A DNA stretch of 64,000 nucleotides from Escherichia phage T5: sequence record NC_005859.1. One strand, given 5' to 3'. The stretch's first letter is position 1; each line of letters begins with the position of its first letter. The position numbers and the translations under genes were made by a program. This document shows positions 10,328 through 64,000 of the stretch, one piece after another. The notes below the pieces were generated by a model that saw only the letters and a list, made by a program, of their open reading frames with translations, had not been told where the DNA came from and did not search any database.

Positions 10328-10358
10328 TCTGGTAAATTAAACCTAAGGGGAGGGGGCT

Positions 10359-11867
10359 ATGCTCCTTCCCCTTTTTGCATTTAGAAGGCACGAAAGCGTG
10401 CAAAGGAGAATGACCTTGTTTAACGTGCAAGCTGTAGTGTTGAAGATGCTTCTAGCTTCCGAACAGAAGCAAATAGCATTGGAAACATTCTCAAAACTGC
10501 ATAAAGATCATTTTAATGACGCTTTCTCCTCAATTTACCAAGCCGTCCAGAATTATTATAAAAAATATAACACAATGCCGTCCATTGACGCACTGATGCT
10601 TGAGGCTAATAGGAACGCCCGCCTTTCTCAAGCTCTAGTCGTTTTAGCTAACACTCAAATTCCAGAAGTTAGCATGGAACAGGCACTTGAAGTCCTAGAG
10701 GCCGAGTATACACAGGATTTATTCCTGAAGCTTCTAGAAACAGACGTGCTTCAAGATTTAACAATGCTGGATCAGGGAGAAATTCTTAACCGAGTTGCCT
10801 CCCTTCACTTAAAATTAGAAGAGAAAGTAACGAATACTGGAAAAGTATTCAACGCAGATAACATGCGTATTTTCCAGAGAGAAGAAGATACCAAACTGAA
10901 CTTAATCGCTCTTGGTATTTGTAATGAGTTCGACGCTCAAATTGGTTTAGCTCGCACAGAAACGTTACTGCTTGGTGGTTGGCGTGGTACTGGTAAATCC
11001 ATTATCTGTTCAAACATACAGGTTGGAGATATTGCTCCATACTTCTCAATTGAGATGAAAGAACATGAAGTATTTAGACGTAATCTAGCCATGTTAGCTG
11101 GTGTATCAGCACTAGCAATGCGAAATAATACTCTAGAAGGTGCAGCTCTGTTGAGATTAGCCAGAACTAGAGCTAGAATGTTTAACGGTGGTGAAGAGCT
11201 TTTCGATAACTTCGTTAAACAATACACAATGGCTAAGATGAGTGATTTCTACGATATGGAAAGTAAGCTAATAGAAGGATATGAGCTACATACTCCTATG
11301 ATTATTGTTTATGATCCTGAGCTGTCTATTACAACAGTTGACGTAGAATTAAATAAATTAGTTGCTAGATATGGGGATAAAGTTACAGTAGCTTTACTTG
11401 ACTATATTAACCAAACCCGACTTCCAGATTCTAAAACCATTGATATGTATGACTGGAAAGAACAGATGGTTGTTAGCTCGTCTTTCAAATCCATCTGCCA
11501 GAAACATAACGTGGCTGGTGTAGCTCCTTACCAGATTGATCAAGATGGTAGAACACGTATGTCAAAAGGGATTCTTGATTCCGCAGACATGGCTGCTAAT
11601 CTTAATGCTGCAAAAGCTGATAATGGTCAAGGTGCTATTATGTTTGACTTCGTTAAGACCCGTTCTTCTGATAGCGTGAAGTTTATGCCTAAAATGAACT
11701 GGGAAACCCTGCGGATGGATAACACTACCAACCTAGCAATGGAAGATATATCTCAAATGGAAGCTGAGTTCGTTATCCCTATTGAGAAGGATAAGCCGGC
11801 TCAATCTAAACGTGCTAAGAAAGACAAAGCTGAAAATTCAACAGGTGAACAGGCCAGCGATATATGA
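10359..11867 (+). CDS. DnaB-like replicative helicase
   Basis: Walker A GGWRGTGKS; RecA-like C-terminal half; exact start uncertain (10359 has ggagg RBS, alternatives 10410/10416). Confidence 0.75.
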   Translation: MLLPLFAFRRHESVQRRMTLFNVQAVVLKMLLASEQKQIALETFSKLHKDHFNDAFSSIYQAVQNYYKKYNTMPSIDALMLEANRNARLSQALVVLANTQIPEVSMEQALEVLEAEYTQDLFLKLLETDVLQDLTMLDQGEILNRVASLHLKLEEKVTNTGKVFNADNMRIFQREEDTKLNLIALGICNEFDAQIGLARTETLLLGGWRGTGKSIICSNIQVGDIAPYFSIEMKEHEVFRRNLAMLAGVSALAMRNNTLEGAALLRLARTRARMFNGGEELFDNFVKQYTMAKMSDFYDMESKLIEGYELHTPMIIVYDPELSITTVDVELNKLVARYGDKVTVALLDYINQTRLPDSKTIDMYDWKEQMVVSSSFKSICQKHNVAGVAPYQIDQDGRTRMSKGILDSADMAANLNAAKADNGQGAIMFDFVKTRSSDSVKFMPKMNWETLRMDNTTNLAMEDISQMEAEFVIPIEKDKPAQSKRAKKDKAENSTGEQASDI

Positions 11868-20038: not shown

Positions 20039-21857
20039 GACACTAAAATTTAGTAACGTTATGTCTTACGGTAAGGACATCGTAATTCATTTCGATAAGA
20101 ATCCAGTTACTCAACTAATTGGGGGCAATGGGCTAGGGAAATCCACCATCGCTACGGTTATCGAGGAGTTGTTTTATAACAAGAACTCTCGAGGTATCAA
20201 GAAGGATGCATTGTTCTCTTGGAATGCCCCTAAGAAAGAATACGATATGCACGCTTACTTCTCAAAAGATGAAGATGAGTATGAATTGCATAAAGTAGTT
20301 AAATCAACTGCTAAAGTTACACTCATTAAGAATGGAGAAGATATTAGTGGGCATACGGCAACCCAAACATATAAGATGATTGAAGAGATTATGGGTGGTG
20401 ACTTTCAAACATTCACCAAACTAATTTATCAATCAGTGGGTTCCAACCTAGATTTTCTAAAAGCAACGGATGCAACACGTAAGGCTTTTCTTGTTAACTT
20501 GTTCAATCAAGAGCAATACAAAGAAATGTCGGAAACTATTAAGGCTGACCGTAAAGAAATAGCAAATACCTTAAATAATTTGCAGGGCCAGATGGCTGTA
20601 ATTACGAAAATCCTTAATGGGAAAAATAATCTAGGAACTTTGCAGGAACCTGTAGAAGTACCGGAGTTTGATGAAGAGCCATTAGCACAAGAACTTACTG
20701 AATCGAAAATTAAGGCGGCATTAGCCAAGTCTCAAGAGGCTAATATTACTAAGTTGCGTAATTTGGACAAAGCTGTACAAGTTGCCGAACAATCTTTCGA
20801 ACCTTTCAAAAATTTGCCCGCGCCCACCGACCAAAATGAAGAGATCTCGAGTGTTACGCGTGACCTAACGATTGTGACCTCACGTGCGAGCGAAGTTAAG
20901 AAACGTTATCAGAAGTTCAAGCAAGAGGCTTCAAATACTGAATGTCCTACTTGCGGTACTCATCTGAATACAACTGCTGCTCAAAAAGCCATGGATATGG
21001 CTAGAGTAGAATATGATCCTCTGTTCAAAGAGAAGCAATCTCTTGAAGCTAAGCTAGAACAGTTGAAGAAAGAACAACTTGAGTACGTTGCGTATACTAG
21101 AGCAAAGGATGCTTTGGATAAAGCAGTGGTAGCTAGAGACGAGTTCAAAAATTCAATGAGTGATGCTTCTTTTGAAGAACTCAATGTGCAAATCCTACAG
21201 GTGCAAATCCGACAATTAGAGCAGGAAATCGCTGATGGCCGTTCTAAGGTTGCAATTGCCAAAGAGCATAATGCAACTGTCGAATTAGCCAATGCAAAAT
21301 ATAAAGCAAAGCTAGAACAGATTGAGAAAGCAGAAGCAGAAATGACTGAGATTACCTCCAAACTGGATGGAGTATCAGAAGCTGTTGCTGATCTCGATAT
21401 TCTAATTGCTGCATTGAAAAATCTGGTGGGGTATAAACTAGAGCATAGTGTGAAAGTATTTGAAGAGCTAATTAATAAATATCTTTCTATTATGACTGGC
21501 GGTAAATTCGCACTTGGATTTGAACTTGATGAAACAAAATTACAAGTAGTAATCTTCAATGATGGAAATCGTACCAGTATGGAGAACTGCTCTACTGGTC
21601 AGCAAAGTCGAATTAATCTAGCAACCCTGTTAGCTATTCGGATGCTGTTAACATCTATTAGTAAAGTTAATATTAATCTTCTATTCCTTGATGAAGTAAT
21701 TAGCTTTATTGATACGAAAGGACTTGATACTCTCGTTGAACTATTAAATGAGGAAGAAAGTCTAAATTCTATCATTGTTTCTCATGGGCATACGCATCCA
21801 TTAGCTCATAAGATTACTGTCAAAAAAGATGCAGAAGGATTTTCCTACTTAGAATAA
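20019..21857 (+). CDS. SbcC/Rad50-like ATPase (T5 D13-like)
   Basis: Walker A GGNGLGKST; long coiled-coil middle; signature/Walker B region LFLDEV; start set at internal ATG 20019 (track start 19938 overlaps D12 by 100 nt). Confidence 0.8.
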   Translation: MSKITIKTLKFSNVMSYGKDIVIHFDKNPVTQLIGGNGLGKSTIATVIEELFYNKNSRGIKKDALFSWNAPKKEYDMHAYFSKDEDEYELHKVVKSTAKVTLIKNGEDISGHTATQTYKMIEEIMGGDFQTFTKLIYQSVGSNLDFLKATDATRKAFLVNLFNQEQYKEMSETIKADRKEIANTLNNLQGQMAVITKILNGKNNLGTLQEPVEVPEFDEEPLAQELTESKIKAALAKSQEANITKLRNLDKAVQVAEQSFEPFKNLPAPTDQNEEISSVTRDLTIVTSRASEVKKRYQKFKQEASNTECPTCGTHLNTTAAQKAMDMARVEYDPLFKEKQSLEAKLEQLKKEQLEYVAYTRAKDALDKAVVARDEFKNSMSDASFEELNVQILQVQIRQLEQEIADGRSKVAIAKEHNATVELANAKYKAKLEQIEKAEAEMTEITSKLDGVSEAVADLDILIAALKNLVGYKLEHSVKVFEELINKYLSIMTGGKFALGFELDETKLQVVIFNDGNRTSMENCSTGQQSRINLATLLAIRMLLTSISKVNINLLFLDEVISFIDTKGLDTLVELLNEEESLNSIIVSHGHTHPLAHKITVKKDAEGFSYLE

Positions 21858-27100: not shown

Positions 27101-28305
27101 GAGCTATAGGAAAGACCGTTACCGCCAAGACCGAAAGCGCCTACAAGCATAGCATTTTCAAGGCCCAAGTCTGCCTTAGTAGGCTTATTTACCTGGTCGT
27201 AAATCCTTGCGGCTAGGCTTTCAATAAATCCTGATGGTTGAGTATCTTGACTAACAAATCCTTCTGGAATGTATAATTCAGTCCTGCCAGTCTGTGCCAG
27301 TACTGCAACCCTTGTTTCTTTAATAAAGGCTCGCTGATAGCACCAGACTTCGAAATAGCCATCACCTTCTACAAGGCCGTAACGCAGTTGGTTATCCCAG
27401 GCAAGGTTTGGTGAACCGAGTCGGCGAACACTTAAAAATTTAGTTATATTTTCACTGGTTACCCCTCTTGCATCGTTAAGACCGCGAGCAGATATCTCTA
27501 CAAAGTCAATATTACCGTAACTTGAACCGTAGTTACCGCCATTTGTAATCATTAGCGTTAGGTGACAGCTTACTGCACCTGGATCGGTAAGTTTAGCTAT
27601 CTTGACGTAAACGCTATTGTTGTTTGTACCGACGGGCCAGTCGTATTGCGTTACTGGGCTTACGAGTTCACTTGCCATATCGAGATATTCTTTCGCCTTA
27701 TTCTCTGACGTTTTGGCATTGGTTTCGCTTGTTTTTGCTGCTGTCTCGCTTTTCTTTGCATTGGTTTCTGATGTTTTTGCTGCTGTGGCAGAGTTTGCAG
27801 CCGCTGTTTTTGATGCATCCGCCGCCTGAGCGCTATTACCAGCATTTGTTTCAGATGTTTTTGCGGCCCTCGCGGAATTTTCTGCCGCCGTTGCAAAGGA
27901 AGATGCGCTACTAGCACTTGATGCTGCGTTCGTTTCTGAAGTTTTTGCAGCATTTTTACTATTATTGGCGTTAGTCTCGGAAGTTTTTGCAGCTTTAGCA
28001 CTATTAGCAGAAGCAGTAGCAGAGGAGGCAGACTGAGTTGCAGATTGCTGAGAAGATGTTGCGGAAATTTCTGCCTCATTCTCAGAATCTTTGGCATTTA
28101 ACTCTGATTGCTTAGCATTAATTTCAGACTGCTTAGCTGCAGGGCCGGATGCTTTAGAAGACTCTATCGCAGAGGTTACGTCTGCAGCAGTAATAGAGCT
28201 AATGGAATTAGAAAGCACAACTGTATACTTAGGATATTTACTTGCAGTTATACTATTCTGGTCCATAGTGACCATTTGCTGTAGAATTATTTTAGTTATA
28301 GCCAT
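24115..28305 (-). CDS. ltf: L-shaped tail fibre protein (pb1-like) with C-terminal intramolecular chaperone domain
   Basis: 1396 aa, same length as T5 pb1; N-terminal AKTSETNA-type repeats; C-terminal ...AMSDPETEAAKAIAKEIGFWTWKE... chaperone/autoprotease-like segment. Confidence 0.85.
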   Translation of the reverse strand: MAITKIILQQMVTMDQNSITASKYPKYTVVLSNSISSITAADVTSAIESSKASGPAAKQSEINAKQSELNAKDSENEAEISATSSQQSATQSASSATASANSAKAAKTSETNANNSKNAAKTSETNAASSASSASSFATAAENSARAAKTSETNAGNSAQAADASKTAAANSATAAKTSETNAKKSETAAKTSETNAKTSENKAKEYLDMASELVSPVTQYDWPVGTNNNSVYVKIAKLTDPGAVSCHLTLMITNGGNYGSSYGNIDFVEISARGLNDARGVTSENITKFLSVRRLGSPNLAWDNQLRYGLVEGDGYFEVWCYQRAFIKETRVAVLAQTGRTELYIPEGFVSQDTQPSGFIESLAARIYDQVNKPTKADLGLENAMLVGAFGLGGNGLSYSSVQSNVDLINKLKANGGQYWRAARESGANVDINDHGSGFYSHCGDTHAAINVQYNTGIVKVLATTDRNLASDIVYANTLYGTANKPSKSDVGLGNVTNDAQVKKAGDVMSGDLDIRKETPSIRLKSTQGNAHLWFMNNDGGERGVIWSPPNNGSLGEIHIRAKTSDGTSTGDFIVRHDGRIEAKDAKISYKISSRTAEFSNDDTNTAATNLRVSGKQHTPIMLVRDSDSNVSVGFKLNNMNAKLLGIDIDGDLAFGENPDHKQNSKIVTRKMMDAGFSVAGLMDFTNGFAGPWEAKNISDQELDLNSLMIKKSDPGSIRVYQCVSAGGGNNITNKPSGIGGNFILYVESIRKVGDTDFTNRQRLFGTDLNREFTRYCSNGTWSAWRESVVSGMNQDVSVKSMSVSGRLSGNELSVGGAGVLNGNLGVGGGATSKMPSSDKGIVIGRGSIVREGGEGRLILSSSGGTDRLLQLRPAGATSLDNQVEISCTSASAGDTKISFGQGAAIRCNNAGSPIISAKAGQMIYFRPNGDGISEGQMILSPNGDLVVKGGVNSKEIDVTASQSLPLKETTATTGIGVNFIGDSATECSFGIENTAGGSAVFHNYTRGASNSVTKNNQLLGGYGSRPWLGSTYTEHSNAALHFLGAGDTSATNHGGWIRLLVTPKGKTISDRVPAFRLSDNGDLWLVPDGAMHSDLGLVRSIETLNAAVPRFNAPSIQDGRGLKIVAPQAPEIDLIAPRGSGASAPAIRAMWCDGSLADTTRYIGATQPGSTFYIGASGHDGEKFDSMRGSVAIKSAGGWGPTSTPTQVVLETCESGSISRLPRWGVDHNGTLMPMADNRYNLGWGSGRVKQVYAVNGTINTSDARLKNDVRAMSDPETEAAKAIAKEIGFWTWKEQADMNDIREHCGLTVQRAIEIMESFGLDPFKYGFICYDKWDEHTVVSEYGPANEDGTENPIYKTIPAGDHYSFRLEELNLFIAKGFEARLSAIEDKLGM
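27660..28100 (-). repeat. in-frame tandem coding repeats in tail fibre N-terminus
   Basis: reiterated gcattggtttc.gatgtttttgc.gctgt DNA units encoding AAKTSETNA-like peptide repeats. Confidence 0.7.
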
Positions 28306-52618: not shown

Positions 52619-52647
52619 TTGCTTATACTGCCATAATTCTGTATAAT
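52619..52647 (+). promoter_or_regulatory. sigma70-type early promoter for llp
   Basis: -35 TTGCTT, 17-bp spacer, -10 TATAAT, PN25-like TAGTATTATAAATT downstream. Confidence 0.6.
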
Positions 52648-52678
52648 AGTATTATAAATTAAATAGGGGAGAATGTAA

Positions 52679-52912
52679 ATGAAAAAATTATTTTTAGCTA
52701 TGGCAGTGGTACTTCTTTCGGCTTGCTCTACTTTTGGACCTAAAGATATTAAATGTGAGGCATACTATATGCAGGATCATGTGAAATATAAGGCTAATGT
52801 TTTTGATAGGAAAGGGGATATGTTTTTGGTGTCACCAATTATGGCCTATGGATCTTTCTGGGCCCCCGTAAGCTACTTTACCGAAGGAAATACATGCGAG
52901 GGAGTTTTCTAA
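52679..52912 (+). CDS. llp: lytic-conversion lipoprotein Llp (receptor-blocking superinfection exclusion)
   Basis: 77 aa; signal peptide with lipobox LLSAC; same length and position as T5 Llp. Confidence 0.8.
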   Translation: MKKLFLAMAVVLLSACSTFGPKDIKCEAYYMQDHVKYKANVFDRKGDMFLVSPIMAYGSFWAPVSYFTEGNTCEGVF

Positions 52913-53075
52913 GTAAAAACCACCTTAGTAACCATCACCACTTAAGATGAACCTAGTGCAGAATTAGTTCAGGATACCACACAAGACACTATGGAAGGTG
53001 TGATGGGAATATTTACACTAATCACTGCAATTGCTAGAGTATTTTAAATACCACACTTATAGGAGCATGAAAGAT

Positions 53076-53204
53076 ATGTCAAACAAAAGAAAGAGCAGAC
53101 GTGGAGAAGTGTACGATAGCTGGATTAATAGCTTTGGATTAGGAACTATTTTATTCTTTATTTTCGTAGGTTTTTGGTTAGCAGCTATGGCGGGGTGGAT
53201 TTAA
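53076..53204 (+). CDS. small membrane protein (42 aa)
   Basis: hand-translated; RBS aggag 10 nt upstream; basic N-terminus then hydrophobic helix; not in ORF track (<60 aa). Confidence 0.45.
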   Translation: MSNKRKSRRGEVYDSWINSFGLGTILFFIFVGFWLAAMAGWI

Positions 53205-53311
53205 TGGAATGGGTAATTATTGCGTTGCTAGGGGTTGTGATTATTGGACAATGTATTTTAGATAATCACTTAGCTAGAATTGAAACTTTATTAACGGAGA
53301 AGCGTAAATGA
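53204..53311 (+). CDS. small membrane protein (35 aa)
   Basis: hand-translated MEWVIIALLGVVIIGQ...; ATG overlaps upstream stop (TAATG). Confidence 0.4.
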   Translation: MEWVIIALLGVVIIGQCILDNHLARIETLLTEKRK

Positions 53312-53740: not shown

Positions 53741-53850
53741 TTGGGAAATCTCGAAATTTCATAAGATTACACATGAAGGTGTGTCCACTGCCTCCGGCGA
53801 AAATACTTAGTCTGCTAACCGCCACCCCCGTTACTATTACCATGCTAACT

Positions 53851-53887
53851 GTTTCACCCTGCAACCATTTTAATTGCAGGGTGAAAC
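53851..53887. other. perfect 14-bp-stem hairpin at late / pre-early junction
   Basis: gtttcaccctgcaa - ccattttaa - ttgcagggtgaaac; no adjacent U-tract. Confidence 0.6.
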
Positions 53888-53904
53888 AATTTCAACTTTA
53901 ATTA

Positions 53905-54639
53905 TTACGCAACTTTTAATTTCTCAATATATTGTTGCGGGCTGCAACTATATTCTGCGCGTTCTTCTTCGGTCATACCTTCCCAACATAATTGCAGGCG
54001 GTCGGCTAGGAACTGATAATCATTATCATCCTCAAGAGATTCATCAATAAAGGTTTCACCTATCAATGTCACGCCGATTGATAGAATATCATTAACGGCT
54101 TGTGCGTCCAGCGTTTTAAATCCGTATGACGCTGCCGCTGATAGCACGCCTTTATGATCATCAATCATTGTAAAATCAGCGTTCGGATATAATTGTTTGA
54201 ATAGCCCAAAATAGTAACTTTTATAAACTGCGTCTTTGCTGTGGTATATCTCGCTAACTTTATCAGCCTCAAAATATTTGTGTAGTGTATCGCGGGAAAA
54301 TACACGGATATTACTATCACCACGACCGCGCAACCCTTGTTTACGCAAATAATAATAGTCCGACTTGCTCATTAGTCGAGCGGTGCAAATAATGTTTAAA
54401 GTATTTGCGTCATTCATGCACTGGCGCATATATGTAACAAGGGGCAATAGTGTATCTTGCATTATTAAATCATGTTTGCAGGCTTCATTTTTATACTTAT
54501 TTAAATCTAAATTGCCCTCGCTATCAAAGCAAGGCGCTACACGATGAAACGAATTAATGATAGTGCCGTCCAGATCCCAAATCATGACGCGGGAAATATG
54601 CGGGAAATTACGGGTAATATTCGTTTTAACTTGATTCAT
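53905..54639 (-). CDS. dmp: 5'-deoxyribonucleotidase (HAD family), Dmp-like
   Basis: 244 aa; HAD motif I IWDLDGT; terminal-repeat-like position next to A1. Confidence 0.75.
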   Translation of the reverse strand: MNQVKTNITRNFPHISRVMIWDLDGTIINSFHRVAPCFDSEGNLDLNKYKNEACKHDLIMQDTLLPLVTYMRQCMNDANTLNIICTARLMSKSDYYYLRKQGLRGRGDSNIRVFSRDTLHKYFEADKVSEIYHSKDAVYKSYYFGLFKQLYPNADFTMIDDHKGVLSAAASYGFKTLDAQAVNDILSIGVTLIGETFIDESLEDDNDYQFLADRLQLCWEGMTEEERAEYSCSPQQYIEKLKVA

Positions 54640-54719
54640 TTTGTTACGTTCTCCATTTGAGGGATTAGATTAATTCAGCATTACCCGCTATTAAATAGCG
54701 GGTAATAATAAATTAACTA

Positions 54720-55115
54720 TTAAAGGCCATACGCTAGCGCATCAGCGATAAAACTAACATCCTCGCCCGATACGCTGGAACGAATGCCAGCGCATGTATA
54801 CACCTTTGCGCTCATTAGCTGATCATCAAGGCAAGCGGGGCAAGGTGCGACTACTGCGAAAGCTAAACCGGATTTTACCGCGTCAATAATGATTGTTTCC
54901 TGTTTCATAGTGTCAACATAAACACCTTTTGCTTTAATATGGCTTGTTAGTTTGCCCTGCATATATGCAAACGTTGTAACTTGCATCGCGTCATTGAAAT
55001 CTAATAGCTCATCAATAACGTGACCGGCCTCGACGTGATAACGCTGACCATTAGAATAAACCAGAACAATAGAAGACTGAGCGCGATCGAATGGGATACG
55101 GTTAGATTTAGCCAT
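54720..55115 (-). CDS. hypothetical pre-early protein
   Basis: 131-aa ORF between dmp and A1. Confidence 0.55.
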   Translation of the reverse strand: MAKSNRIPFDRAQSSIVLVYSNGQRYHVEAGHVIDELLDFNDAMQVTTFAYMQGKLTSHIKAKGVYVDTMKQETIIIDAVKSGLAFAVVAPCPACLDDQLMSAKVYTCAGIRSSVSGEDVSFIADALAYGL

Positions 55116-55151
55116 GTTTATAACTCCAATTAGTTTAATAAGGGATTTAAT

Positions 55152-55430
55152 TTATTTGCTAGCTTCAAGACTTACAACAAAAGCGAGATTTGTTTCTTTC
55201 CATACGTCAGGAATATCATTTTCCTGTAAATGGTCTTTCGCTTCATACTCATTTTCAAAAGAATAAAAATCGCCGGACTCAATTATATAAATATGCCCGT
55301 TTAGTTCATTTTGATAAATATAACAATTATTATCTTTTAAATTGCGGTATACAGTACCATGCCGTAAAACATCAAGCGACCATGTATCAGCGGTGTTTTT
55401 CATGCTGGGAAGATTAATTTTAATAGCCAT
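55152..55430 (-). CDS. hypothetical pre-early protein
   Basis: 92-aa ORF. Confidence 0.5.
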   Translation of the reverse strand: MAIKINLPSMKNTADTWSLDVLRHGTVYRNLKDNNCYIYQNELNGHIYIIESGDFYSFENEYEAKDHLQENDIPDVWKETNLAFVVSLEASK

Positions 55431-55486
55431 TTAATTTAGCTCCTGTAATAGCGGCTATATCTCAAGCCGCTAGGGGAATAATTTAA

Positions 55487-57157
55487 TTACGCAAAGAATT
55501 TACCATTCTTAAAGTCAATCAAAGTGCGTTGACCGTTTGCATAGGTAATAATATGCGTTTGAGTCCAGCTAGACGCGCCAACGTTGTAACCCATGTCCAG
55601 ACTACCAGTCACGCCAGCGGTATAAACGCCGCCGTAAATGCTGGCGGTGTGGGTGTGTCCGGTGTTTAATTTGCCCAATTTCTTAAACTGTTTCGGGTTG
55701 CCACGGCTCCCGTTAATGCCGTTGTGACCGTGTACGCCGCATTCAATGCCTGCAATCTTGAAAGATTGGTCAGTGGTCAGGAAAATGGCGTTAAATTCAC
55801 AGCCTGCAACCTTGCGCAGCGCATAATCAAGCACGTTAAAAGTATCGTCTTTTTCTGCAATAGCTCCATAAATCGCAGCATTCAGGCGGTGATATAGTTC
55901 CGCGTTTGCTGGGTCGTCTTTAATGTTAGCATTACGATCATCTAACCAGCGGGATAGCGCCAGATCATGATTAGATTCAACAATGATTGTTTGAGAAAAA
56001 TCACGCTCCATTGATTCCAGTACGCGCCCCGTATCGATAAGATCATCTAATACCTTATCACGTCCGGCGGCATATTGTTTCGCTAGGAATACGCCAGATG
56101 CGCGGTTGTGATGGTTGCGTGATGTAAAATCATGCACGTCGTGTACAAACTGATATTTTGGTTTAAGAATATCAACAAGCCCGTAGGTGTCACCATGCCC
56201 CCAAGACGCAGCGGCGCACTCCTCATCTAATTTTTCAGCGTGAATGTCGCCATATTGTAAACCTAAAACGTGCCCCGTTGTTTCATAACATCCGGCAGGA
56301 GTGGCGCAAGTATTCAAATCATAAAACACGCCGCTCTCGTCCATCGTTTCAAGCTGGCGCACAAAAAACTCACCGTCCTCGTCAAACTCAACAATAAGCG
56401 CACCGAAGTTATGCAGCGCCTCGGCCTTTTGTCCTGCTTTCTGCTGGATGTAATTTTTTAGCGTTGCCGTTCCGGTTGAATACATACGGCGCACAATTTC
56501 ACCTTTTAAAGCTGGCACGCTTTCGGCGGTGATTTTAGCCGCTCCAATTGCTAGACCTTCAAGATTCAGCGCGGTTGCAGTTTCAGCGAATCCAGAAAGC
56601 GGATAATCTGCGGTGGGTAAAACGTTAATTTCAGCCATGAAAGCAAATCGGCGATTATTTAAAAACACGTTTTTATTGCAGATATATTTGTCAAATGCGG
56701 AATCGTATCTGATACCGTCGGCGCCCTCGCCATTTTGAAAACCGTTTTTGTTATAGATAAACTTGCTAACCAGCAAATCAGCGCCGATAAATTGGGCGTA
56801 TTGTTCAAGTGAGGCTAAAAAGTTTTTATGCGGGAACGTATTATTCTGAATCGATGTAATAATAAAGCGTTTACCTTGTTTTACTTCCCATTGCTCAACC
56901 GTGCTAGAAACAATCCCCGCCGCTTCTGGGCGCTCATCGTTTTTAATGGCTTTTGCTACTTTCGCCGCTTTCGGTTTCGCTGGTTTATTTGCTTCCAGCC
57001 AGTCACAAATTGCGGTAGAGTGTTTTGTTGTATCGTAAACCATTTTTGAAATATCGTCGCAAACTTCCAATTTAGTAGCGCGCAGACGTTTACCGTAGAA
57101 ATTAAAGTCAGCGGCCATTTTCAGGATAACGGTTTGTTTTTCTGCGGAAATAACCAT
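55487..57157 (-). CDS. A1: A1-like pre-early protein with metallophosphoesterase domain
   Basis: 556 aa, same length as T5 A1; calcineurin-like motifs GDIH, GDTYG, ESNHD, GHNG, HTHT in C-terminal half. Confidence 0.75.
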   Translation of the reverse strand: MVISAEKQTVILKMAADFNFYGKRLRATKLEVCDDISKMVYDTTKHSTAICDWLEANKPAKPKAAKVAKAIKNDERPEAAGIVSSTVEQWEVKQGKRFIITSIQNNTFPHKNFLASLEQYAQFIGADLLVSKFIYNKNGFQNGEGADGIRYDSAFDKYICNKNVFLNNRRFAFMAEINVLPTADYPLSGFAETATALNLEGLAIGAAKITAESVPALKGEIVRRMYSTGTATLKNYIQQKAGQKAEALHNFGALIVEFDEDGEFFVRQLETMDESGVFYDLNTCATPAGCYETTGHVLGLQYGDIHAEKLDEECAAASWGHGDTYGLVDILKPKYQFVHDVHDFTSRNHHNRASGVFLAKQYAAGRDKVLDDLIDTGRVLESMERDFSQTIIVESNHDLALSRWLDDRNANIKDDPANAELYHRLNAAIYGAIAEKDDTFNVLDYALRKVAGCEFNAIFLTTDQSFKIAGIECGVHGHNGINGSRGNPKQFKKLGKLNTGHTHTASIYGGVYTAGVTGSLDMGYNVGASSWTQTHIITYANGQRTLIDFKNGKFFA

Positions 57158-57253
57158 AATAATAAAACTCCATTAAAGGGATTAAAAAACGTTTGTTATT
57201 GGCAATATTGCCAAATATAACGCCTTGAATAATAGGCGTTATAATTTGCAACA

Positions 57254-57451
57254 TTAATTTAAAGGCATAAGGCTAGAACTAACACCACAAGCAACGGCGG
57301 CAATAAAACAAATCAGACCTAAACGCTTTGCTAACTTAGATTTACGTTTAAAATAATACGAATCTAAATCATTTTGAAAATAAGCGAACAATAACGAGGC
57401 CGCCATAATAAACAAGCCTAGAATGAGGGATTCAGTAGGGTAAAAGATCAT
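57254..57451 (-). CDS. small membrane protein
   Basis: 65 aa with two hydrophobic helices. Confidence 0.45.
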   Translation of the reverse strand: MIFYPTESLILGLFIMAASLLFAYFQNDLDSYYFKRKSKLAKRLGLICFIAAVACGVSSSLMPLN

Positions 57452-57507
57452 TTTAAAACTCCAGTCAAAGGGAAATTATAGTGGGGAATATTCCCCACTA
57501 ATTAAAT

Positions 57508-57915
57508 TTATTCGCCTGCGGCTTGTTTTACTTCATCGGCAACGCCTAACAGTTGCGCCACGGCGTCCAGCGTTTCCAATTTTGCACTTTCCAGTGATGC
57601 CAGATCGTCAGCGTCTTTGATAATACCGGAATCGATGGCATGTTTTGCAATCACACGCACGTAGTGCGCTTTGCGGATAGAACTGCCGCCGCCAACCTTG
57701 CGAGGTTTATCGCTTTTCTGATACGCTTTCGCGCTGGTCAATTTTGAGCGAACAGACACGGGAGAAGCCGCGCCAACTGCTTTTGCAATCTCTTTTAAAC
57801 CGTCGCTATTTGCGAAATCTAAACCGTTTTCATTAATTAACTGCTGGTACATGGAAACAGCTTTCTGAGTGTTTTCTTCATTCCAAGCGAATTTTGCGGT
57901 TTTAGCGTTAGTCAT
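57508..57915 (-). CDS. A2: A2-like pre-early DNA-binding protein
   Basis: 135-aa ORF immediately after A1 in transcription order; size and position match T5 A2. Confidence 0.65.
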   Translation of the reverse strand: MTNAKTAKFAWNEENTQKAVSMYQQLINENGLDFANSDGLKEIAKAVGAASPVSVRSKLTSAKAYQKSDKPRKVGGGSSIRKAHYVRVIAKHAIDSGIIKDADDLASLESAKLETLDAVAQLLGVADEVKQAAGE

Positions 57916-58010
57916 GATGTAACTCCTGTTTATTTAATTTAAGGGATAAGATTAACATAATGTTAATCGTTATATCCCCCGAACTACTGGGGGATATAAA
58001 AGTAACACTA

Positions 58011-58262
58011 TTACGCTACGGCTTCCCATTTTTCGTTACGCTGGGCAACCTTTACAACGTCGCCGGATTTAACCCGAACGTTGTAAACAGTTTTTCCGTT
58101 GTTACTCCGTTCCGTTTCAGCGTATACCGCATCAATTACATCAAACGGCATAAGCGCCGCGCCTTTAATGCGTTCGGTTTTTCCGGTTACCTCATCCGTT
58201 TTAGTAACGAAAGGGATAAAAACGGATTGACCAATTTTTGGCGCAGTAGTAACGTTTTGCAT
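58011..58262 (-). CDS. hypothetical protein
   Basis: 83-aa ORF; GC-richer codon usage like the A1/A2 block. Confidence 0.5.
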   Translation of the reverse strand: MQNVTTAPKIGQSVFIPFVTKTDEVTGKTERIKGAALMPFDVIDAVYAETERSNNGKTVYNVRVKSGDVVKVAQRNEKWEAVA

Positions 58263-58495
58263 AATATAAACTCCAGTTTATTAAGGGGGATTGTTCCGCA
58301 TTACCTGCTGTAAAAGTAGTGGCAGGTAATAAGCAACAATCCGCTCGCCAATATAATCAATTTAAAGAACTCCACTCAGGCCGCTATATCCCAGTTAGGG
58401 GGCGGGACACATTATGGTAAGTGCCGACCGTCATATTTTATCAAGTTATCGCTCTCATCGAACTGGGTACATCTTAAAGCCTATCGGCTAGGGTG

Positions 58496-58699
58496 TCAAA
58501 CTATTTTTTGCAGTTTTTTATGATTTTCTTTCAAGTCAATCATAATGTTTCGCCAGATCATTTCCAGACCTTGCTGGCGGCCTTTCTTGTACTGCCTAAA
58601 TCGATATTTTACCGATTGCTGGGCTATTGTCAACAATTTTTTAGTAGTACCATCTAATTTTTTAGCTGGTTTACCAGTGATCAATAAAGTTTGTTTCAT
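58496..58699 (-). CDS. hypothetical basic small protein
   Basis: 67-aa Lys/Arg-rich ORF in an otherwise non-coding stretch. Confidence 0.3.
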   Translation of the reverse strand: MKQTLLITGKPAKKLDGTTKKLLTIAQQSVKYRFRQYKKGRQQGLEMIWRNIMIDLKENHKKLQKIV

Positions 58700-59191
58700 A
58701 TCGTCGATTCCTTATAATATATAAGTTTACCGCCGATAGACTTTAAGATGTACCCAATTTTTAAAGAGCGTGGCGGTAAACTTCCCGCCGTGTAGTTCGT
58801 CATTGCCGCCCTACGAGATAAATAATAGGGGATACCCAAAAATGGCGCAACCTTATTTTTGTAAAGAAACGTAAAGAAGGCAACACGTCCGGCGCTCACC
58901 TAAGTTTAAAGGAAACGGGCGCGCGAATACCATAAAACCTAGCAGGTTGGCAAGTAATTTTTTCCTTTATATTTGCCTTGCCCTAGTTGACAAATCTTAG
59001 AAAGCTCGTGGTGACGATAAACGGGTTATCCCCTTATGATGGGATGCCTGAAAAATTTACCGCGTCAGAAAGCGTTTTAGGCGGCTTATTTTCGATTTAA
59101 CAAATATTTAACAAAAGCAAAATTGAAAAATAGTTGGAAAAGATATTGACTTTTAAAAATCAAGACTAAACGAGTTATTTTATAAAATTAA

Positions 59192-59710
59192 TTAATTGAC
59201 AATTCCAAATTCAGCTTTTTTAGTTTCTACCCATAATAATAACTCTTGTAAATCATAACCTGATTTACTAACACTTTTGTTACTAGTAGGATCTTTAACT
59301 ATAGCGCGCAAATAGTTTCTTCCGTTATTATCAACTCTAGAACCATTATAATAGATATGCTTAGGCAACTTATTAGCACGCTTATAATCTTTCTTGTTAT
59401 TCATATTCTGCTTATGGTCTACTAAGCGAAGATTATTAATGTTATTATTAGCACGGTTACGATCATTATGATCGATTGTTAGATTGCTATCAATCTCACC
59501 ATTAAATAATACCCATATTATTCTATGCACTGCGTATTGTTCGCCTGCTAACTTTACTCGATAGTAACCTGTGTTACTATAATGCCCTGCAATATCACCC
59601 ACCTTACTATTACCTTTCTGTACTTTCCATCTTAGAAATGATGGGGATGTTTCATCATAATAAAAGTTATCATTAGCAAGCGAATAATCTATATCTTTAA
59701 ATAGACCCAT
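59192..59710 (-). CDS. HNH homing endonuclease with AP2-like domain
   Basis: 172 aa; AVHRIIW...IDHNDRNRANNNINNLR...HKQN HNH motif; third member of the family at 4556 and 11864. Confidence 0.7.
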   Translation of the reverse strand: MGLFKDIDYSLANDNFYYDETSPSFLRWKVQKGNSKVGDIAGHYSNTGYYRVKLAGEQYAVHRIIWVLFNGEIDSNLTIDHNDRNRANNNINNLRLVDHKQNMNNKKDYKRANKLPKHIYYNGSRVDNNGRNYLRAIVKDPTSNKSVSKSGYDLQELLLWVETKKAEFGIVN

Positions 59711-59876
59711 TGTTATAGTTTCCTTATGTTATTAATTTAATCTCTATTATATTATATCAAAACCATTAGCAAACTACCTAATGAGTTTTTCAGGTTTAAT
59801 TAGCAGACTCATAATCACTTTAAAATCCTATTAGCCAACTAACTATATTTTGTTATATAATAACTGCATAAATTAG

Positions 59877-60010
59877 TTAGTGAGAAACACTATCATTTAA
59901 GTTATCCACAGCCTTATACATTTTGTAAATTAACTTGACACAATAGGAAGGCTTTATAGCACTTTTACACAGACTTATCCACAGGTTATTCCACTGTATA
60001 AATATACAGG
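59877..60010. repeat. left arm of ~130-bp imperfect inverted repeat, with DnaA boxes and 16-bp palindrome
   Basis: TTATCCACA at 59903-59911 and 59975-59983; palindrome ctgtataaatatacag 59994-60009; reverse complement aligns by eye with 63192-63320. Confidence 0.65.
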
Positions 60011-60275
60011 GTAAATGGAAAACATATTATAATGATGCCCAAAATAAGCGGCCTAAAACGCTTTCTAACGAGCAAAACGCTATAGGGTAATATTAAAGTA
60101 AAGCCTCAACGCGTCGCCCTGGTGGCTTCGCCGTGTTTTGCTCTTTACTATACCGCTGCGCGGTTAGCATAAAACTAGGCGCTAGGCAAGGAAAATAAAA
60201 AGGTAAAATAATATTTGCCTATGCTAGAAAATTACCTTTATCATTCACTCACCGATTAACGAGGGAGGCCAACAA

Positions 60276-61286
60276 ATGCGGCTATATAAACCAGATAACG
60301 CAACCGTCTTAAAGGGCGCCTTGCGCAACCTGCTGGATGGTAGCAGGACAACCAGCATTAAACATTTTATTAACAAGGCTGAAACTATTCACCAAAACTT
60401 TTTTAATGATTATGATGCCTATGATATGGATAGTTTTCTACCCCTATATAAGCAGGGGGCAACGATTATCTTATATAATCGTGATTGCCATATCTTTACG
60501 GGCAGGGGAGCGGGGCCGGATACTGATTTTATTGTTGCGCAGGGTAATAATATCGTTGCGTATCATAGCAATTCAGGCCGTCAATCATTTAATATAAATA
60601 ATTTTGAGCTTGTTGGGCTTGAATTAATAAACGGACTTTCTAGCCTTGAGGGATTTTTAGATGTTATCTGGAAGTATTTATCTGCTGGATGGCATAGACC
60701 TGATAGTGATGGATCTCAATATACGGCTGTAATGGCTTTTGATGGCGACGGTAATTTTTTATTACCATCGGAATTATATCCGTATGTATATAATGAGCTA
60801 GTACAAGAAGCGGGTTTTATTTTCTGGAAAGATGAGAATCAGATCATTGACAACACGGAAAAACATGCTGTAAATTCTAACACTCAAAGCGTTAACACTC
60901 AAATCACTGAAAACAAAGGAAAAAATGCCATGACCAAGATCGCTAATATCGTTGCCGCTAATAAATCCGCCGTTGTAAATGCTGCAAAACTGGAAGCGGG
61001 CAAAATTGCATTAACTCAAATCACGAAAGTAGCGGCTAAAAAAGCACCATTTATGATTAAAGGTTATATTGATACGCCTATTGGTCGGGTAGTTATTGCT
61101 AACCTGCTGAGCGTAGCGGTTGACCAGTACGCCCCTAGCAACCAAAAGGCGAAAGCGGTAGCGGGTGCAGCTATGGAAGCGGCTATGCTAGAAATGGTGC
61201 AAAGTTTTAACATCGCTGAAATGATTGATGAAATGGTGAAAGGTATTGATATTTCTACTTTTACCGTTAACACCGAAAGCGAGTAA
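60276..61286 (+). CDS. hypothetical protein (336 aa), first gene of inverted-repeat-bounded cassette
   Basis: RBS gagggagg; mixed alpha/beta N-terminal domain, Ala-rich helical C-terminus. Confidence 0.65.
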   Translation: MRLYKPDNATVLKGALRNLLDGSRTTSIKHFINKAETIHQNFFNDYDAYDMDSFLPLYKQGATIILYNRDCHIFTGRGAGPDTDFIVAQGNNIVAYHSNSGRQSFNINNFELVGLELINGLSSLEGFLDVIWKYLSAGWHRPDSDGSQYTAVMAFDGDGNFLLPSELYPYVYNELVQEAGFIFWKDENQIIDNTEKHAVNSNTQSVNTQITENKGKNAMTKIANIVAANKSAVVNAAKLEAGKIALTQITKVAAKKAPFMIKGYIDTPIGRVVIANLLSVAVDQYAPSNQKAKAVAGAAMEAAMLEMVQSFNIAEMIDEMVKGIDISTFTVNTESE

Positions 61287-61314
61287 TAATTAACCTAATG
61301 TAAAGTTTTGTAAA

Positions 61315-61340
61315 GGTCGCCATAATCGGCGGCCTTTTTT
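61315..61340 (+). terminator. possible terminator/attenuator
   Basis: short GC stem (tcgcc/ggcgg) followed by CCTTTTTTG. Confidence 0.35.
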
Positions 61341-61404
61341 GTTATAATGCCTTTACACCGTTTGAGGACGGTTGAAAATTTTCCCAAAATTTTGGAGGCT
61401 TAAA

Positions 61405-61635
61405 ATGGTTGCTTATTCTTCTTCTGACGCTCTTTTCACTGGAAAAGGCTGGGTATCAAATCGCTGGATCATTCAAGAAATGGTGCAGGAGTTCGGCATT
61501 GCTAAAACTTACACTACCATTCAGGCGCTTTATGATAATGATCAAATCGATCAGCAAACGGCGGGCTTTTTGCTGGATACCCTGAAAGCGGAACACTGTA
61601 CTAAAAAACAAGCCGCCAAAATTGTTTTAATGTAA
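61405..61635 (+). CDS. hypothetical protein
   Basis: 76 aa from ATG with RBS ggagg 6 nt upstream (track start 61372 is TTG). Confidence 0.55.
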   Translation: MVAYSSSDALFTGKGWVSNRWIIQEMVQEFGIAKTYTTIQALYDNDQIDQQTAGFLLDTLKAEHCTKKQAAKIVLM

Positions 61636-61684
61636 TTAATAACGGGGCGTTACTTTCGCCCCACTAACTAGGGGAGTATTACAA

Positions 61685-61849
61685 ATGGTTATTTTTCGAG
61701 CTATTCTGGCAGGTATCTTGGGCGCTATTCTGACCCTTTTTGCTACCGCTTACGGTATTCAAGATTCTTATTGTGGTTTAGTAAATACTAAACCTATGGT
61801 TATTATTGGCGCGGGTATCGCTGTATTTTCTTATCTGCTGGGCTGCATG
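61685..61849 (+). CDS. small membrane protein (54 aa)
   Basis: hand-translated MVIFRAILAGILGAILTLFATAYG...; RBS gggag; not in ORF track. Confidence 0.35.
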
Positions 61850-61866
61850 AATAAAGGAGAATAAAA

Positions 61867-62079
61867 ATGATCCGCAACGTTTCTCTTGCTCGTTCAAAGG
61901 GTTTTAAGCTGGTGGATGTTAACACATTCGAGCGGGAAGATTGTAAAATCGAATATGTAGCACGTAATAAAAACGCCTTTCGTGTTACAGAAAAGAAATT
62001 TGATAAGCGCGGCAACGTGATAGCTGAAACGGTTAAACATTTTGCCACCTTTTACGCGGCTTTTCGTGGAGTGTTATAA
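61867..62079 (+). CDS. hypothetical protein
   Basis: 70-aa ORF, RBS aaaggaga. Confidence 0.55.
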   Translation: MIRNVSLARSKGFKLVDVNTFEREDCKIEYVARNKNAFRVTEKKFDKRGNVIAETVKHFATFYAAFRGVL

Positions 62080-62080
62080 A

Positions 62081-62425
62081 ATGGTAATTTATGAAGGCAA
62101 TCGCTTTGTTGCTATTTGCCGACCGGGATTATTAGCAAACTACTTAAATCAGGTGTCACCTGAATATAAAGGCGTCATTAATATTTATGAGGGCAAGGCG
62201 CATTATAAGATTAATGCGGTCGTTGCCCGTGAATTAGCATTTCAATTTTTGACTTTCGCATCTTGTGATATTCAGGTCATGGGTGAAGCGTTAATTGCAG
62301 AAAATGAAGATGATTTTATTAATATCTTCCGCAAGGTATACACCGAGCGCCTGATAATGAAAGGCGCATATATTCAGTCAACTGCGGAAAGTATTGAAAC
62401 AGCTTTCAGAAAGGTGGCGCAATGA
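62081..62425 (+). CDS. hypothetical protein
   Basis: 114 aa from ATG 62081 (RBS ggag), 1 nt after upstream stop. Confidence 0.55.
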   Translation: MVIYEGNRFVAICRPGLLANYLNQVSPEYKGVINIYEGKAHYKINAVVARELAFQFLTFASCDIQVMGEALIAENEDDFINIFRKVYTERLIMKGAYIQSTAESIETAFRKVAQ

Positions 62426-62440
62426 AGCTATATATTTTCG

Positions 62441-62719
62441 TTGGTAATGTTGAGGCTGCGAATGATTCCGCTGGTGGCGATAACGTTCGCCACTATTGGC
62501 AAAAATATATTTACTAGGGTTATTATGATTACACTGATTTGCGTTAAAGCCGAAGGCGACACGATAGCGCGAGAAGGGCAAAAATATAAAGCCCAAAAAG
62601 ATCAATTACTCAAAACAATTGAGCGTTACAAAATACCCGATCTCAAGTATTCCGTAGTAGGACGCGATGGGATTCTAAGGGCGACACTTGAGAACGCTAT
62701 CTTTGAGATAGTCAACTAA
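62441..62719 (+). CDS. hypothetical protein (start uncertain)
   Basis: track ORF begins with TTG; internal ATG at 62525 would give 64 aa. Confidence 0.35.
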   Translation: MVMLRLRMIPLVAITFATIGKNIFTRVIMITLICVKAEGDTIAREGQKYKAQKDQLLKTIERYKIPDLKYSVVGRDGILRATLENAIFEIVN

Positions 62720-62734
62720 TAACGGGGCGTTATT

Positions 62735-62938
62735 ATGAGCAATAAAATTATTGTGACCAAAACTACCACAATGGTAGACGTTTTTTATGTGCCCGATACG
62801 CCGGAGAATCGGGGAGCGGTCGAGCGGGGCGAGTATGATAGCGTTATTTATGATGCCGATGGTTATTATCAGCATTTGGTCGATTCCTACGGGGAAGAGG
62901 AGAAGATCACGCATCGATTACCCGAGGGGGATTTATGA
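62735..62938 (+). CDS. hypothetical acidic small protein
   Basis: 67-aa ORF. Confidence 0.5.
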   Translation: MSNKIIVTKTTTMVDVFYVPDTPENRGAVERGEYDSVIYDADGYYQHLVDSYGEEEKITHRLPEGDL

Positions 62939-63048
62939 AACGATGGTTTAATCACTGGTATAAACGGTTTTTAGTACGGCATCGCAAGTCTAGACAGCAA
63001 GATGATTGGCGGGAAATGGCAAAGCGTAACAATTGCCCACTTCTCTGA
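62935..63048 (+). CDS. small basic protein (37 aa)
   Basis: hand-translated MKRWFNHWYKRFLVRHRKSRQQDDWREMAKRNNCPLL; ATGA overlap with upstream stop; followed by terminator. Confidence 0.35.
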   Translation: MKRWFNHWYKRFLVRHRKSRQQDDWREMAKRNNCPLL

Positions 63049-63055
63049 TAACCGA

Positions 63056-63077
63056 CGGGGATCAGCTCCCCGTTTTT
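63056..63077 (+). terminator. rho-independent terminator closing the plus-strand cassette
   Basis: cgggga-tcagc-tccccg hairpin followed by TTTTT. Confidence 0.7.
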
Positions 63078-63191
63078 CACGCCTCCAGTTAAATCCCCCT
63101 TTGTTTTAGTATCCCCATCAAAATTAAACGCGTTAGAATGCGATCTAGGACGTTTTAGGCATATATTAGAATTATTCACTGCGTAGGAATA

Positions 63192-63320
63192 CTGTATAAA
63201 TATACAGTAGGATAACCTGGGGATAAGTCTGTTGATAACGCTTCAAAATGGCTAGGATTTTGTCAAGGCGAATCGTGCTGTTGATAAGTCTGTGGATAAC
63301 TTAAATAACAGTGTTTCTCA
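63192..63320. repeat. right arm of inverted repeat, with DnaA-box cluster and 16-bp palindrome
   Basis: palindrome ctgtataaatatacag 63192-63207; DnaA-box-like 9-mers (rc TTATCCACA at 63291-63299; variants at 63209-63239 and 63279-63287); tail cttaaataacagtgtttctcac mirrors the left arm. Confidence 0.65.
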
Positions 63321-63323
63321 CTT

Positions 63324-63480
63324 CCGTTTTTAAATACGAATCATTATCATTCGTATTCCGCTTTTTAAATGAGAATCATTCCGCTTTTTAAATGAGAATC
63401 ATTTCACTTCCTGAATAGTTCTCATTCCCTTTCTTAAATGAGAATCATTATCATTTGCATTTCACTTTTTAAATGAGATT
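63324..63480. repeat. array of ~22-bp direct repeats (CCGCTTTTTAAATGAGAATCATT)
   Basis: two perfect tandem copies 63358-63403 plus three degenerate copies; each holds the small dyad AATGA-n3-TCATT. Confidence 0.75.
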
Positions 63481-63509
63481 GATTCTCATTATCATTCGCA
63501 TTCAGGCGA

Positions 63510-63527
63510 GCAGGGCAATTGCCCTGC
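63510..63527. other. perfect 18-bp palindrome
   Basis: gcagggcaattgccctgc followed by gcttttg. Confidence 0.7.
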
Positions 63528-63533
63528 GCTTTT

Positions 63534-63756
63534 GTGCAAATCCGACATTTGCCCCCATGGATTACGCGTGGGCGTGTATGTGCAAATCCGACAATTTTTG
63601 GTAGTGTGCGAATCCGACCCGAAAAATTTTTATAGTGTGCAAATCCGACAATGAATTTTCCCAAAAACTCCAGCAATCACGAACTGCGTTCGAATCCTGT
63701 GGAATTAGCTAGAGTATGTGCAAATCCGACATGTGTTGAGATGTGCGAATCCGACA
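63534..63756. repeat. iteron-like array: six copies of 14-bp GTGC(A/G)AATCCGAC(A/C)
   Basis: copies at 63534, 63580, 63606, 63646, 63718, 63743 with irregular 25-72 bp spacing, all same orientation, non-coding. Confidence 0.8.
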
Positions 63757-63892
63757 AGATTTTTGTGACTTCGATGGGAGGGTGTGTGATTGTATGGGTT
63801 TGAGGGGAAGATGAGAGAGCGAGAGAAATTTGGGAGGCTAGAAGGATATGGGCGCAGGATTGGTGCGGAGCACCTGATTTGCGGGGATTTTG

Positions 63893-63936
63893 GGGAAGAG
63901 TTGAGATAATTTGGGAAGATTTGAGATAGGTGCAGA
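63893..63936. repeat. purine-rich tandem repeat (TTTGGGGAAGAGTTGAGATA-like, 2 copies)
   Basis: within a strongly G+A-skewed plus-strand tract 63770-63940. Confidence 0.5.
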
Positions 63937-64000
63937 AAAAGTAAAATTTTATTAGCTAAAGGGGGCAAAATAGCTTGACAAGTGAAAATTTCTGTGGCTC

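Follow-up and report, generated by a model that had tools for sequence, protein, structure and literature searches.

In tailed phages, the DNA that was packaged last is released first. Lambda cosB combines R sites and a bend beside cosN, and SPP1 pacL and T3/T7 pacB are terminase recognition sites. At the T7 concatemer junction, the terminal repeat lies between arrays of short repeats, and concatemer processing requires a site at which transcription pauses. On the RNA level, rut sites such as lambda tR1 are C-rich, G-poor, and unstructured. [quoted passage not shown]

Both the DNA considered here and the repeats that it carries have been published, with names, for the type phage. Record AY692264 has a feature, "injection stop signal," at 9140-10144, and AY587007 lists copies 2 and 3 of direct repeat A between copy 6 of direct repeat D and the repeat end at 10139. 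Davison (2020 bioRxiv 10.1101/866236) treats 9194-10409 as the conserved "Repeat Region 3," places the stop-signal candidates, a DnaA-box inverted repeat at 9332-9462 and the DRE repeats, left of an estimated shear point at ~9618, and proposes that the A1/A2 target lies right of the stop. Both the annotated feature and Repeat Region 3 contain the tract described below, named repeats included, and thus cover the same DNA. The left end of T5 is injected first according to the literature, and papers from 2026 still call the mechanism by which transfer stops and restarts poorly understood. In Davison 2020 and the later papers citing it, the repeats are named, and neither the A repeats nor the tract is given a role; C-depletion, 10-bp phasing, the conserved boundary block, and the leftward promoter are not mentioned there. 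Furthermore, the searched literature yielded neither terminase binding nor genetic packaging data for T5. Relative to Davison 2020 and its citing papers, what is new here is the non-coding status of the tract, its conserved length and C-poverty, its Klebsiella equivalent, the phasing, a covarying hairpin, and the boundary block. Since the DNA and its repeats had been described before, the discovery is a modest one.

The window, by which we mean the whole stretch analyzed, comprises the right 64 kb (64,000 nucleotides) of the T5 genome as deposited in NC_005859.1, with the genome ending physically at position 64000, its right terminus. Its last bases, …TCTGTGGCTC, are identical to the end of the left-repeat copy in a 121,750-bp T5 contig, where they run on into TAAAAACTC…, which identifies the window edge as the deposited physical right terminus. 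By mapping, the first 3 kb of the window correspond to AY587007 position 57820. The last 1.1 kb is 100% identical to T5 st0 (AY692264) and 99.8% identical to ATCC 11303-B5 (AY587007), each of which is matched twice because both terminal repeats are in the record. At position 63998, the window reads …GTGGCTC and AY587007 reads …GTGGATC, with a terminal GATC site; this mismatch is either a strain difference or an end-sequencing error. Terminal-repeat annotations of the T5 records place the tract inside the repeat, 50 to 230 bp inward of the physical right end. The first-pass annotation had therefore been right in guessing at a terminus-proximal element and wrong in regarding it as incomplete and cut by the window edge, as the tract ends about 50 bp before the right terminus. 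The features to which we refer are the following.

53782-64000, plus strand: T5 right terminal repeat, 10,219 bp (the first bases of AY587007 map to 53782).
63192-63528, plus strand: published injection-stop candidates, namely, the DnaA-box inverted repeat (IRD'-spacer-IRC'), 23-nt repeats, palindrome J, and the 7.9% nick (AY587007; Davison 2020).
63534-63754, plus strand: six GTGCRAATCCGA repeats in the same orientation, equal to direct repeat D copies 1 to 6, flanking the tract on its left.
63770-63949, plus strand: the C-depleted, G-rich, non-coding tract, equal to AY587007 9909-10088.
63805-63818, plus strand: partial third GGGAAGA…GAGA copy, from the repeat family search.
63821-63990, no strand assigned: helically phased segment, with A/T runs every 10.0 bp and G runs between them.
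63853-63883, plus strand: two-helix hairpin with an outer stem CGCA/TGCG and an inner stem-loop GGTGC-GGA-GCACC (63862-63874), from the RNAalifold consensus.
63890-63928, plus strand: two 19-nt repeats in tandem, with a period of 20 bp, equal to AY587007 direct repeat A copies 2 and 3.
63950-64000, plus strand: inner half of a near-invariant block, with TTGACA at 63975-63980 and the terminal motif CTGTGGCTC at 63992-64000.

The tract is real and lies far beyond the compositional range of the window. Over 63770-63940, the base composition is 27.5% A, 6.4% C, 41.5% G, and 24.6% T, and the strand asymmetry spans about 63770 to 63950, with a GC skew reaching +0.6 to +0.7. Purines account for 69% of the tract, compared with a window mean of 50% (sd 5%). 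When the whole 64 kb is scanned in 171-nt windows, the tract is the top non-overlapping locus for purine content (maximum of 0.708, at 63776) and the lowest for C (minimum of 0.058), in agreement with its having been singled out as unlike the rest of the window. Its earlier description as almost entirely G+A captured the purine-rich extreme correctly but implied a near-absence of pyrimidines that the T content contradicts; cytosine-depleted and G-rich fits better. In the substitution spectrum, avoidance of C is weak and not significant (16% versus 20 to 21%). The next-lowest-C segments, at 52640-53260, lie just left of the right terminal repeat, in the plus-strand genes ORF148 to ORF151, which encode Glu/Arg/Gly-rich products. 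We considered these segments, at ~52.6 to 53.3 kb, as a counterpart at the other boundary and rejected them as ordinary coding sequence unrelated to the tract.

The tract is non-coding. The first-pass annotation had named a location within an ordinary coding gene as the finding that would refute its view, and the tract does not lie in one. The open frames found there, one of 87 amino acids on the minus strand and one of 39 amino acids on the plus strand, vary in frame and extent among 31 relatives, and the T5 tract ORFs gave zero matches to PHROG families. Open frames are frequent on the G-poor minus strand of the tract and are inconsistent among the 31 distinct relatives. Substitutions within the tract lack 3-nt periodicity (p = 0.41 to 0.85), and indels of 1 to 2 nt occur among relatives. 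ARAGORN detected no tRNA or tRNA relic in the tract. A conserved G-quadruplex was rejected as well, since the G runs are not kept within Tequintavirus, those of T5 at 63776-63808 being gone in BF23, saus47N, and others; a canonical G4 pattern is found solely in the Klebsiella tract.

Within the tract, the tandem pair consists of TTGGGGAAGAGTTGAGATA (63890-63908) and TTTGGGAAGATTTGAGATA (63910-63928), which are identical at 17 of 19 positions and begin 110 bp ahead of the terminus. A tandem repeat had been noticed here before, and its presence holds; its period is 20 bp, not ~22 bp, and its extent is 63890-63928, not 63893-63936. None of 100 shuffles gave at least two matches. With just two copies, the pair fell below the score threshold of Tandem Repeats Finder, which did not report it. 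The pattern GGGAAGA…GAGA occurs three times in the tract, starting at 63805, 63893, and 63913, and in Epseptimavirus the tandem-repeat sequence is loosely kept. Direct repeat D, six copies of which lie to the left of the tract, gives 7 matches in the window, compared with 0.03 expected, and its copies 7 to 9 follow beyond the boundary, in the left-repeat copy. A lone exact copy of the direct-repeat-D core, GTGCAAATCCGA, lies at 21201-21212, far from the terminal repeat. Same-orientation repeat units in the tract are one possible source of its strand asymmetry. The DnaA boxes and iteron-like repeats of the region suggested an origin of the plasmid type, which we rejected: there was no plasmid match, and the T5 origins are mid-genome (Davison 2020 bioRxiv 10.1101/866236, citing earlier origin mapping). 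No motif common to the left and right termini was found.

The two-helix hairpin retains its pairing in spite of sequence change. In the RNAalifold alignment of relatives, it shows the double changes CG<->AU, UA<->CG, and CG<->UA, and the stems GGTGC/GCACC and CGCA/TGCG have as their counterparts GGCGT/ACGCC and GCAGC/GCTGC, respectively. These compensatory changes would fit a scenario in which the tract acts as a plus-strand structured non-coding RNA or intrinsic terminator, with the hairpin followed by a T run, as is clearest in Epseptimavirus (GCTGC-G-TTTTT); G-U pairs of the extended stem, moreover, are workable in plus-strand RNA only. As the covariation comes from two or three lineages, however, it amounts to modest evidence. 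In addition, the tract has no relevant match in Rfam 15 at an E value of ≤1, its plus-strand fold is no more stable than those of shuffles (z = +1.0), the promoter scan gives only weak plus-strand matches nearby, and the hairpin is not called as a terminator. Such an RNA-level element on the plus strand is therefore highly improbable. Other hairpins occur nearby. One, at 63680-63692 (CGAAC-TGC-GTTCG), has stems in relatives that differ yet are complementary (GATGC/GCATC and GTGC/GCAC). Ahead of it stands AAAAACTCCAGCAATCA, which is nearly identical to the AAAAACTCAGGCAATCA ahead of the hairpin GGGCC-TTC-GGCCC directly outside the repeat.

Comparison with other T5-like termini, which the first-pass annotation had proposed, placed the tract in a conserved setting. 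About 440 phage records contain it at 74 to 100% identity, and all 31 relatives, whose distinct loci make up the alignment, have a homologue of 178 to 180 nt with 4.5 to 9.5% C and 37 to 41% G. Length and low C are thus kept, while conservation within the region is lowest in the interior of the tract (0.67 to 0.86 in some 30-nt bins). The neighbor of the tract is a near-invariant block of ~130 bp that straddles the terminal-repeat boundary (63950-64000 of the window and its continuation; AY587007 10089-10178). Column conservation over AY587007 10089-10178 is 0.96 to 0.99, the highest in the whole non-coding region, and identities of at least 90% are found for the boundary block in 311 of 444 phage records, compared with 70 of 441 for the tract query.

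The repeat end itself is marked by TTGACA-N11/12-CTGTGGCTC^TAAAAA (where ^ denotes the boundary), an arrangement common to Tequintavirus, Epseptimavirus, and Sugarlandvirus. The annotated repeat ends of T5, BF23, Shivani, Stitch, EscoHU1, SPC35, and vB_SenS-3 lie within 5 bp of the homologous site, with those of BF23 being read based (PhageTerm). No such conservation between genera is seen at the left physical ends. The TTGACA at 63975-63980 was considered as part of a sigma-70 promoter and rejected, as it has no acceptable -10 element and the promoter scan made no call there.

The Klebsiella T5-like phages (Sugarlandvirus) carry an equivalent arrangement, although their BLAST similarity to T5 is limited to the DnaA-box segment. 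In Sealy and IME260, the corresponding tracts cannot be aligned to that of T5, yet they are G-rich on the same strand, contain 8 to 13% C, and are preceded by GTGCAAATCCGA repeats. A different 20-bp tandem pair begins 110 bp before TTGACA…CCTGTGGCTC^TAAAAA, as in T5; both phages have a GC hairpin, which in Sealy is GCTGC-GGC-GCAGC at the equivalent place, and in both a hairpin of unrelated sequence lies past the boundary. The left and right repeat copies of IME260 diverge immediately past CCTGTGGCTC, which confirms the boundary in a third genus.

Deposited repeat ends are not always consistent with this boundary. The final 20 bp of IME260 (KX845404), GCTTAGAGGGTTGGGGGGTG, are outside the repeat and do not correspond to the left end, so that its annotated 10,277-bp repeat is 20 bp too long. 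Relative to the conserved boundary, the annotated end is ~207 bp short in saus47N, 18 bp short in Kenya-K15, 600 bp long in Kenya-K36, and ~209 bp short in chee130_1; these four offsets look like annotation inaccuracies. The boundary sequence …CTGTGGCTC^TAAAAA… can be used to correct terminal-repeat annotations, several of which are inconsistent.

The second conserved property is helical phasing. In T5, the top spectral peak is at 10.0 bp, with z values against shuffles of 5.6 for G and 6.9 for A/T dinucleotides. Every enterobacterial relative tested has the same top peak, with z reaching 10.4, and the period is also detected in the Klebsiella phages. When the sequence from 63871 to the terminus is written in rows of ten, an A/T run closes nearly every 10-mer. 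Within the 64-kb window, the tract ranks first among 120-nt loci and second among 220-nt loci; at the latter size, ~27901-28120 is the sole locus that exceeds it in 10-bp A/T periodicity (18.3 versus 16.0). The tract thus has A/T tracts phased at the helical repeat over several turns, with curvature being a prediction: the alternation of A/T and G runs at this interval predicts a curved, anisotropically bendable, or easily wrapped duplex. These data lend computational support to the first-pass suggestion of a structural element. They also bear on an alternative in which the tract has no function of its own, having arisen as a side effect of base composition or simply filling the space from the repeat arrays to the boundary block. 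The weakly conserved interior and the non-significant C avoidance would be in keeping with such a passive origin. In the absence of constraint, however, it is hard to see how the tract would have kept its length and phasing, or why Klebsiella phages with no alignable sequence would show the same composition and geometry again, which makes a passive origin rather improbable.

Considering these data, our best explanation, which we put forward tentatively, is that proteins assemble on the tract, as curved DNA, so that terminase can form the genome end and packaging can begin. In this scenario, it would be the terminus-proximal arm of the site that forms the inner (right) boundary of the long terminal repeat. 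A terminase or an accessory DNA-binding protein would assemble on the curved arm in concatemeric DNA, the cut would then be made at the conserved boundary (…TTGACA-N11-CTGTGGCTC^TAAAAA…), and packaging would proceed leftward from there. Since T5 injects its left end first, the last-in-first-out rule implies that the right end should be packaged first. The fixed geometry of a curved, repeat-bearing tract relative to an invariant cut site, together with packaging from the right end, fits a site for terminase or an accessory protein. As is typical of pac- and cosB-like sites, the tract is adjacent to a sequence-specific genome end (~50 bp away, with the boundary conserved to within 5 bp in seven phages), and it contains repeated motifs and predicted bent DNA (the 20-bp pair, the third partial copy, and the 10.0-bp phasing).

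Like lambda cosB, SPP1 pacL, and T3/T7 pacB, the T5 tract thus combines short repeats and bent DNA within a few hundred base pairs of a site-specific end, on what in T5 would be the first-packaged side. T5 differs from the cosB and pac systems in that it has neither cohesive ends nor headful cuts but makes a direct terminal repeat of 10 kb, and there is no sequence similarity among these sites. The T7 concatemer junction resembles the T5 region in its exact direct terminal repeat, in the same-orientation short-repeat arrays at its borders, and in transcription aimed at the junction, which in T5 is predicted. T7, however, uses its own RNA polymerase and has a 160-bp repeat, whereas the T5 promoter is known from a match to the sigma-70 consensus alone. 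Several observations speak against a packaging site. The tandem repeat is only loosely conserved in Epseptimavirus, and C avoidance is non-significant. Furthermore, curvature by itself does not require G runs on one strand, and an asymmetry found in three genera could reflect a role at the level of RNA or single strands.

A second possibility is that the tract belongs to the two-step injection device, either helping to stop the first step or to restart the second, for example, by being bound or cleaved by the A1/A2 proteins. The "injection stop signal" of AY692264 covers the tract, which also lies within the conserved Repeat Region 3, on the side of the stop where Davison proposes the A1/A2 target, and a mere 300 to 460 bp right of the estimated shear point at ~9618. 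That signal, however, was assigned by position alone, and the tract is located to the right of the published candidates, which lie ~450 to 580 bp leftward of it. According to a review, T5 ejects all of its DNA in vitro, with pauses that correlate with nicks, which argues that DNA structure alone does not halt transfer. A role in injection also does not predict the coupling between tract and boundary across three genera, and we consider it unlikely.

Packaging alone leaves one conserved feature unexplained, a leftward promoter. A consensus or near-consensus sigma-70 sequence, TTGACA-17/18-TATAAT with a TG extended -10, points left toward the boundary from a position 550 to 880 bp to its right in 27 of 34 distinct relatives, Klebsiella phages included; the evidence here is the sequence match. 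In T5, this match is at AY587007 10771-10799 on the minus strand, beyond the window, and the interval between it and the boundary contains no ORF of at least 30 amino acids. A small gene in this interval was rejected because the ORFs annotated in Kenya-K15 and Kenya-K36 are not intact in T5. Amid the variable non-coding DNA of the interval, AY587007 10488-10529 forms an invariant block of ~40 bp (CCATCCTAGCAGATGAGCGGCAAC.GGTGTATCATCTTGAA), over which some records annotate small ORFs that are likewise not intact in T5.

The leftward promoter brings in a reading at the RNA level, in which the tract would be a Rho-loading (rut) site on a leftward untranslated transcript of the left-repeat copy and of concatemers. 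We regard this as doubtful. Should it nevertheless apply, transcription would start at a strong promoter ~630 bp right of the boundary and cross the boundary, and Rho, loading on the C-rich RNA, would stop the polymerase short of reading the pre-early genes in antisense. The minus-strand RNA of the tract has a %C-%G value of 0.41 over 100 nt, which is ~5.6 SD above the mean and the extreme of the window on either strand, and it is nearly unstructured (minimum free energy of -11.5 kcal/mol for 200 nt). A rut site calls for ~80 nt or more of weakly structured RNA that is rich in C and poor in G, which this RNA provides; like lambda tR1-type sites, it would be long, C-rich, G-poor, unstructured, and untranslated, with the T5 transcript itself being predicted. 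Termination by Rho would account for the strand asymmetry, for the leftward promoter, and for a tract composition that is better conserved than the tract sequence. Nevertheless, a rut site needs neither a fixed length nor tandem repeats 110 bp from the boundary, and it gives no reason for the DNA helical phasing or the fixed distance to a DNA cut site that are both present in the T5 tract. In addition, the promoter is a consensus match only, and the right-repeat copy in virion DNA has no promoter downstream.

As a long shot, the leftward promoter could act together with the tract and with the invariant boundary block and the hairpin that flanks it, as one transcription-coupled end-formation module, a combination of the Rho and packaging ideas that present evidence makes unlikely. 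At the boundary, either Rho acting on the C-rich transcript or the hairpins would halt host RNA polymerase, and terminase would then cut and start packaging at a place marked by the stalled complex or by the curved DNA once it is opened. If true, such a module would be a host-polymerase analogue of the pause at the T7 concatemer junction, and strand asymmetry, helical phasing, and fixed geometry would be explained together.

Returning to the tract as a candidate packaging site, comparative evidence sets it apart from the stop candidates around the DnaA boxes and shows its geometry to be fixed relative to the conserved boundary. With the published stop-signal candidates on one side of it and the repeat boundary on the other, it touches on two old questions of T5 biology, namely, how DNA transfer stops and restarts and how the exact 10-kb terminal repeats are cut and regenerated, both of which papers from 2026 still call open. 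For the T5 group, the tract is a concrete candidate for the site of end formation and packaging.
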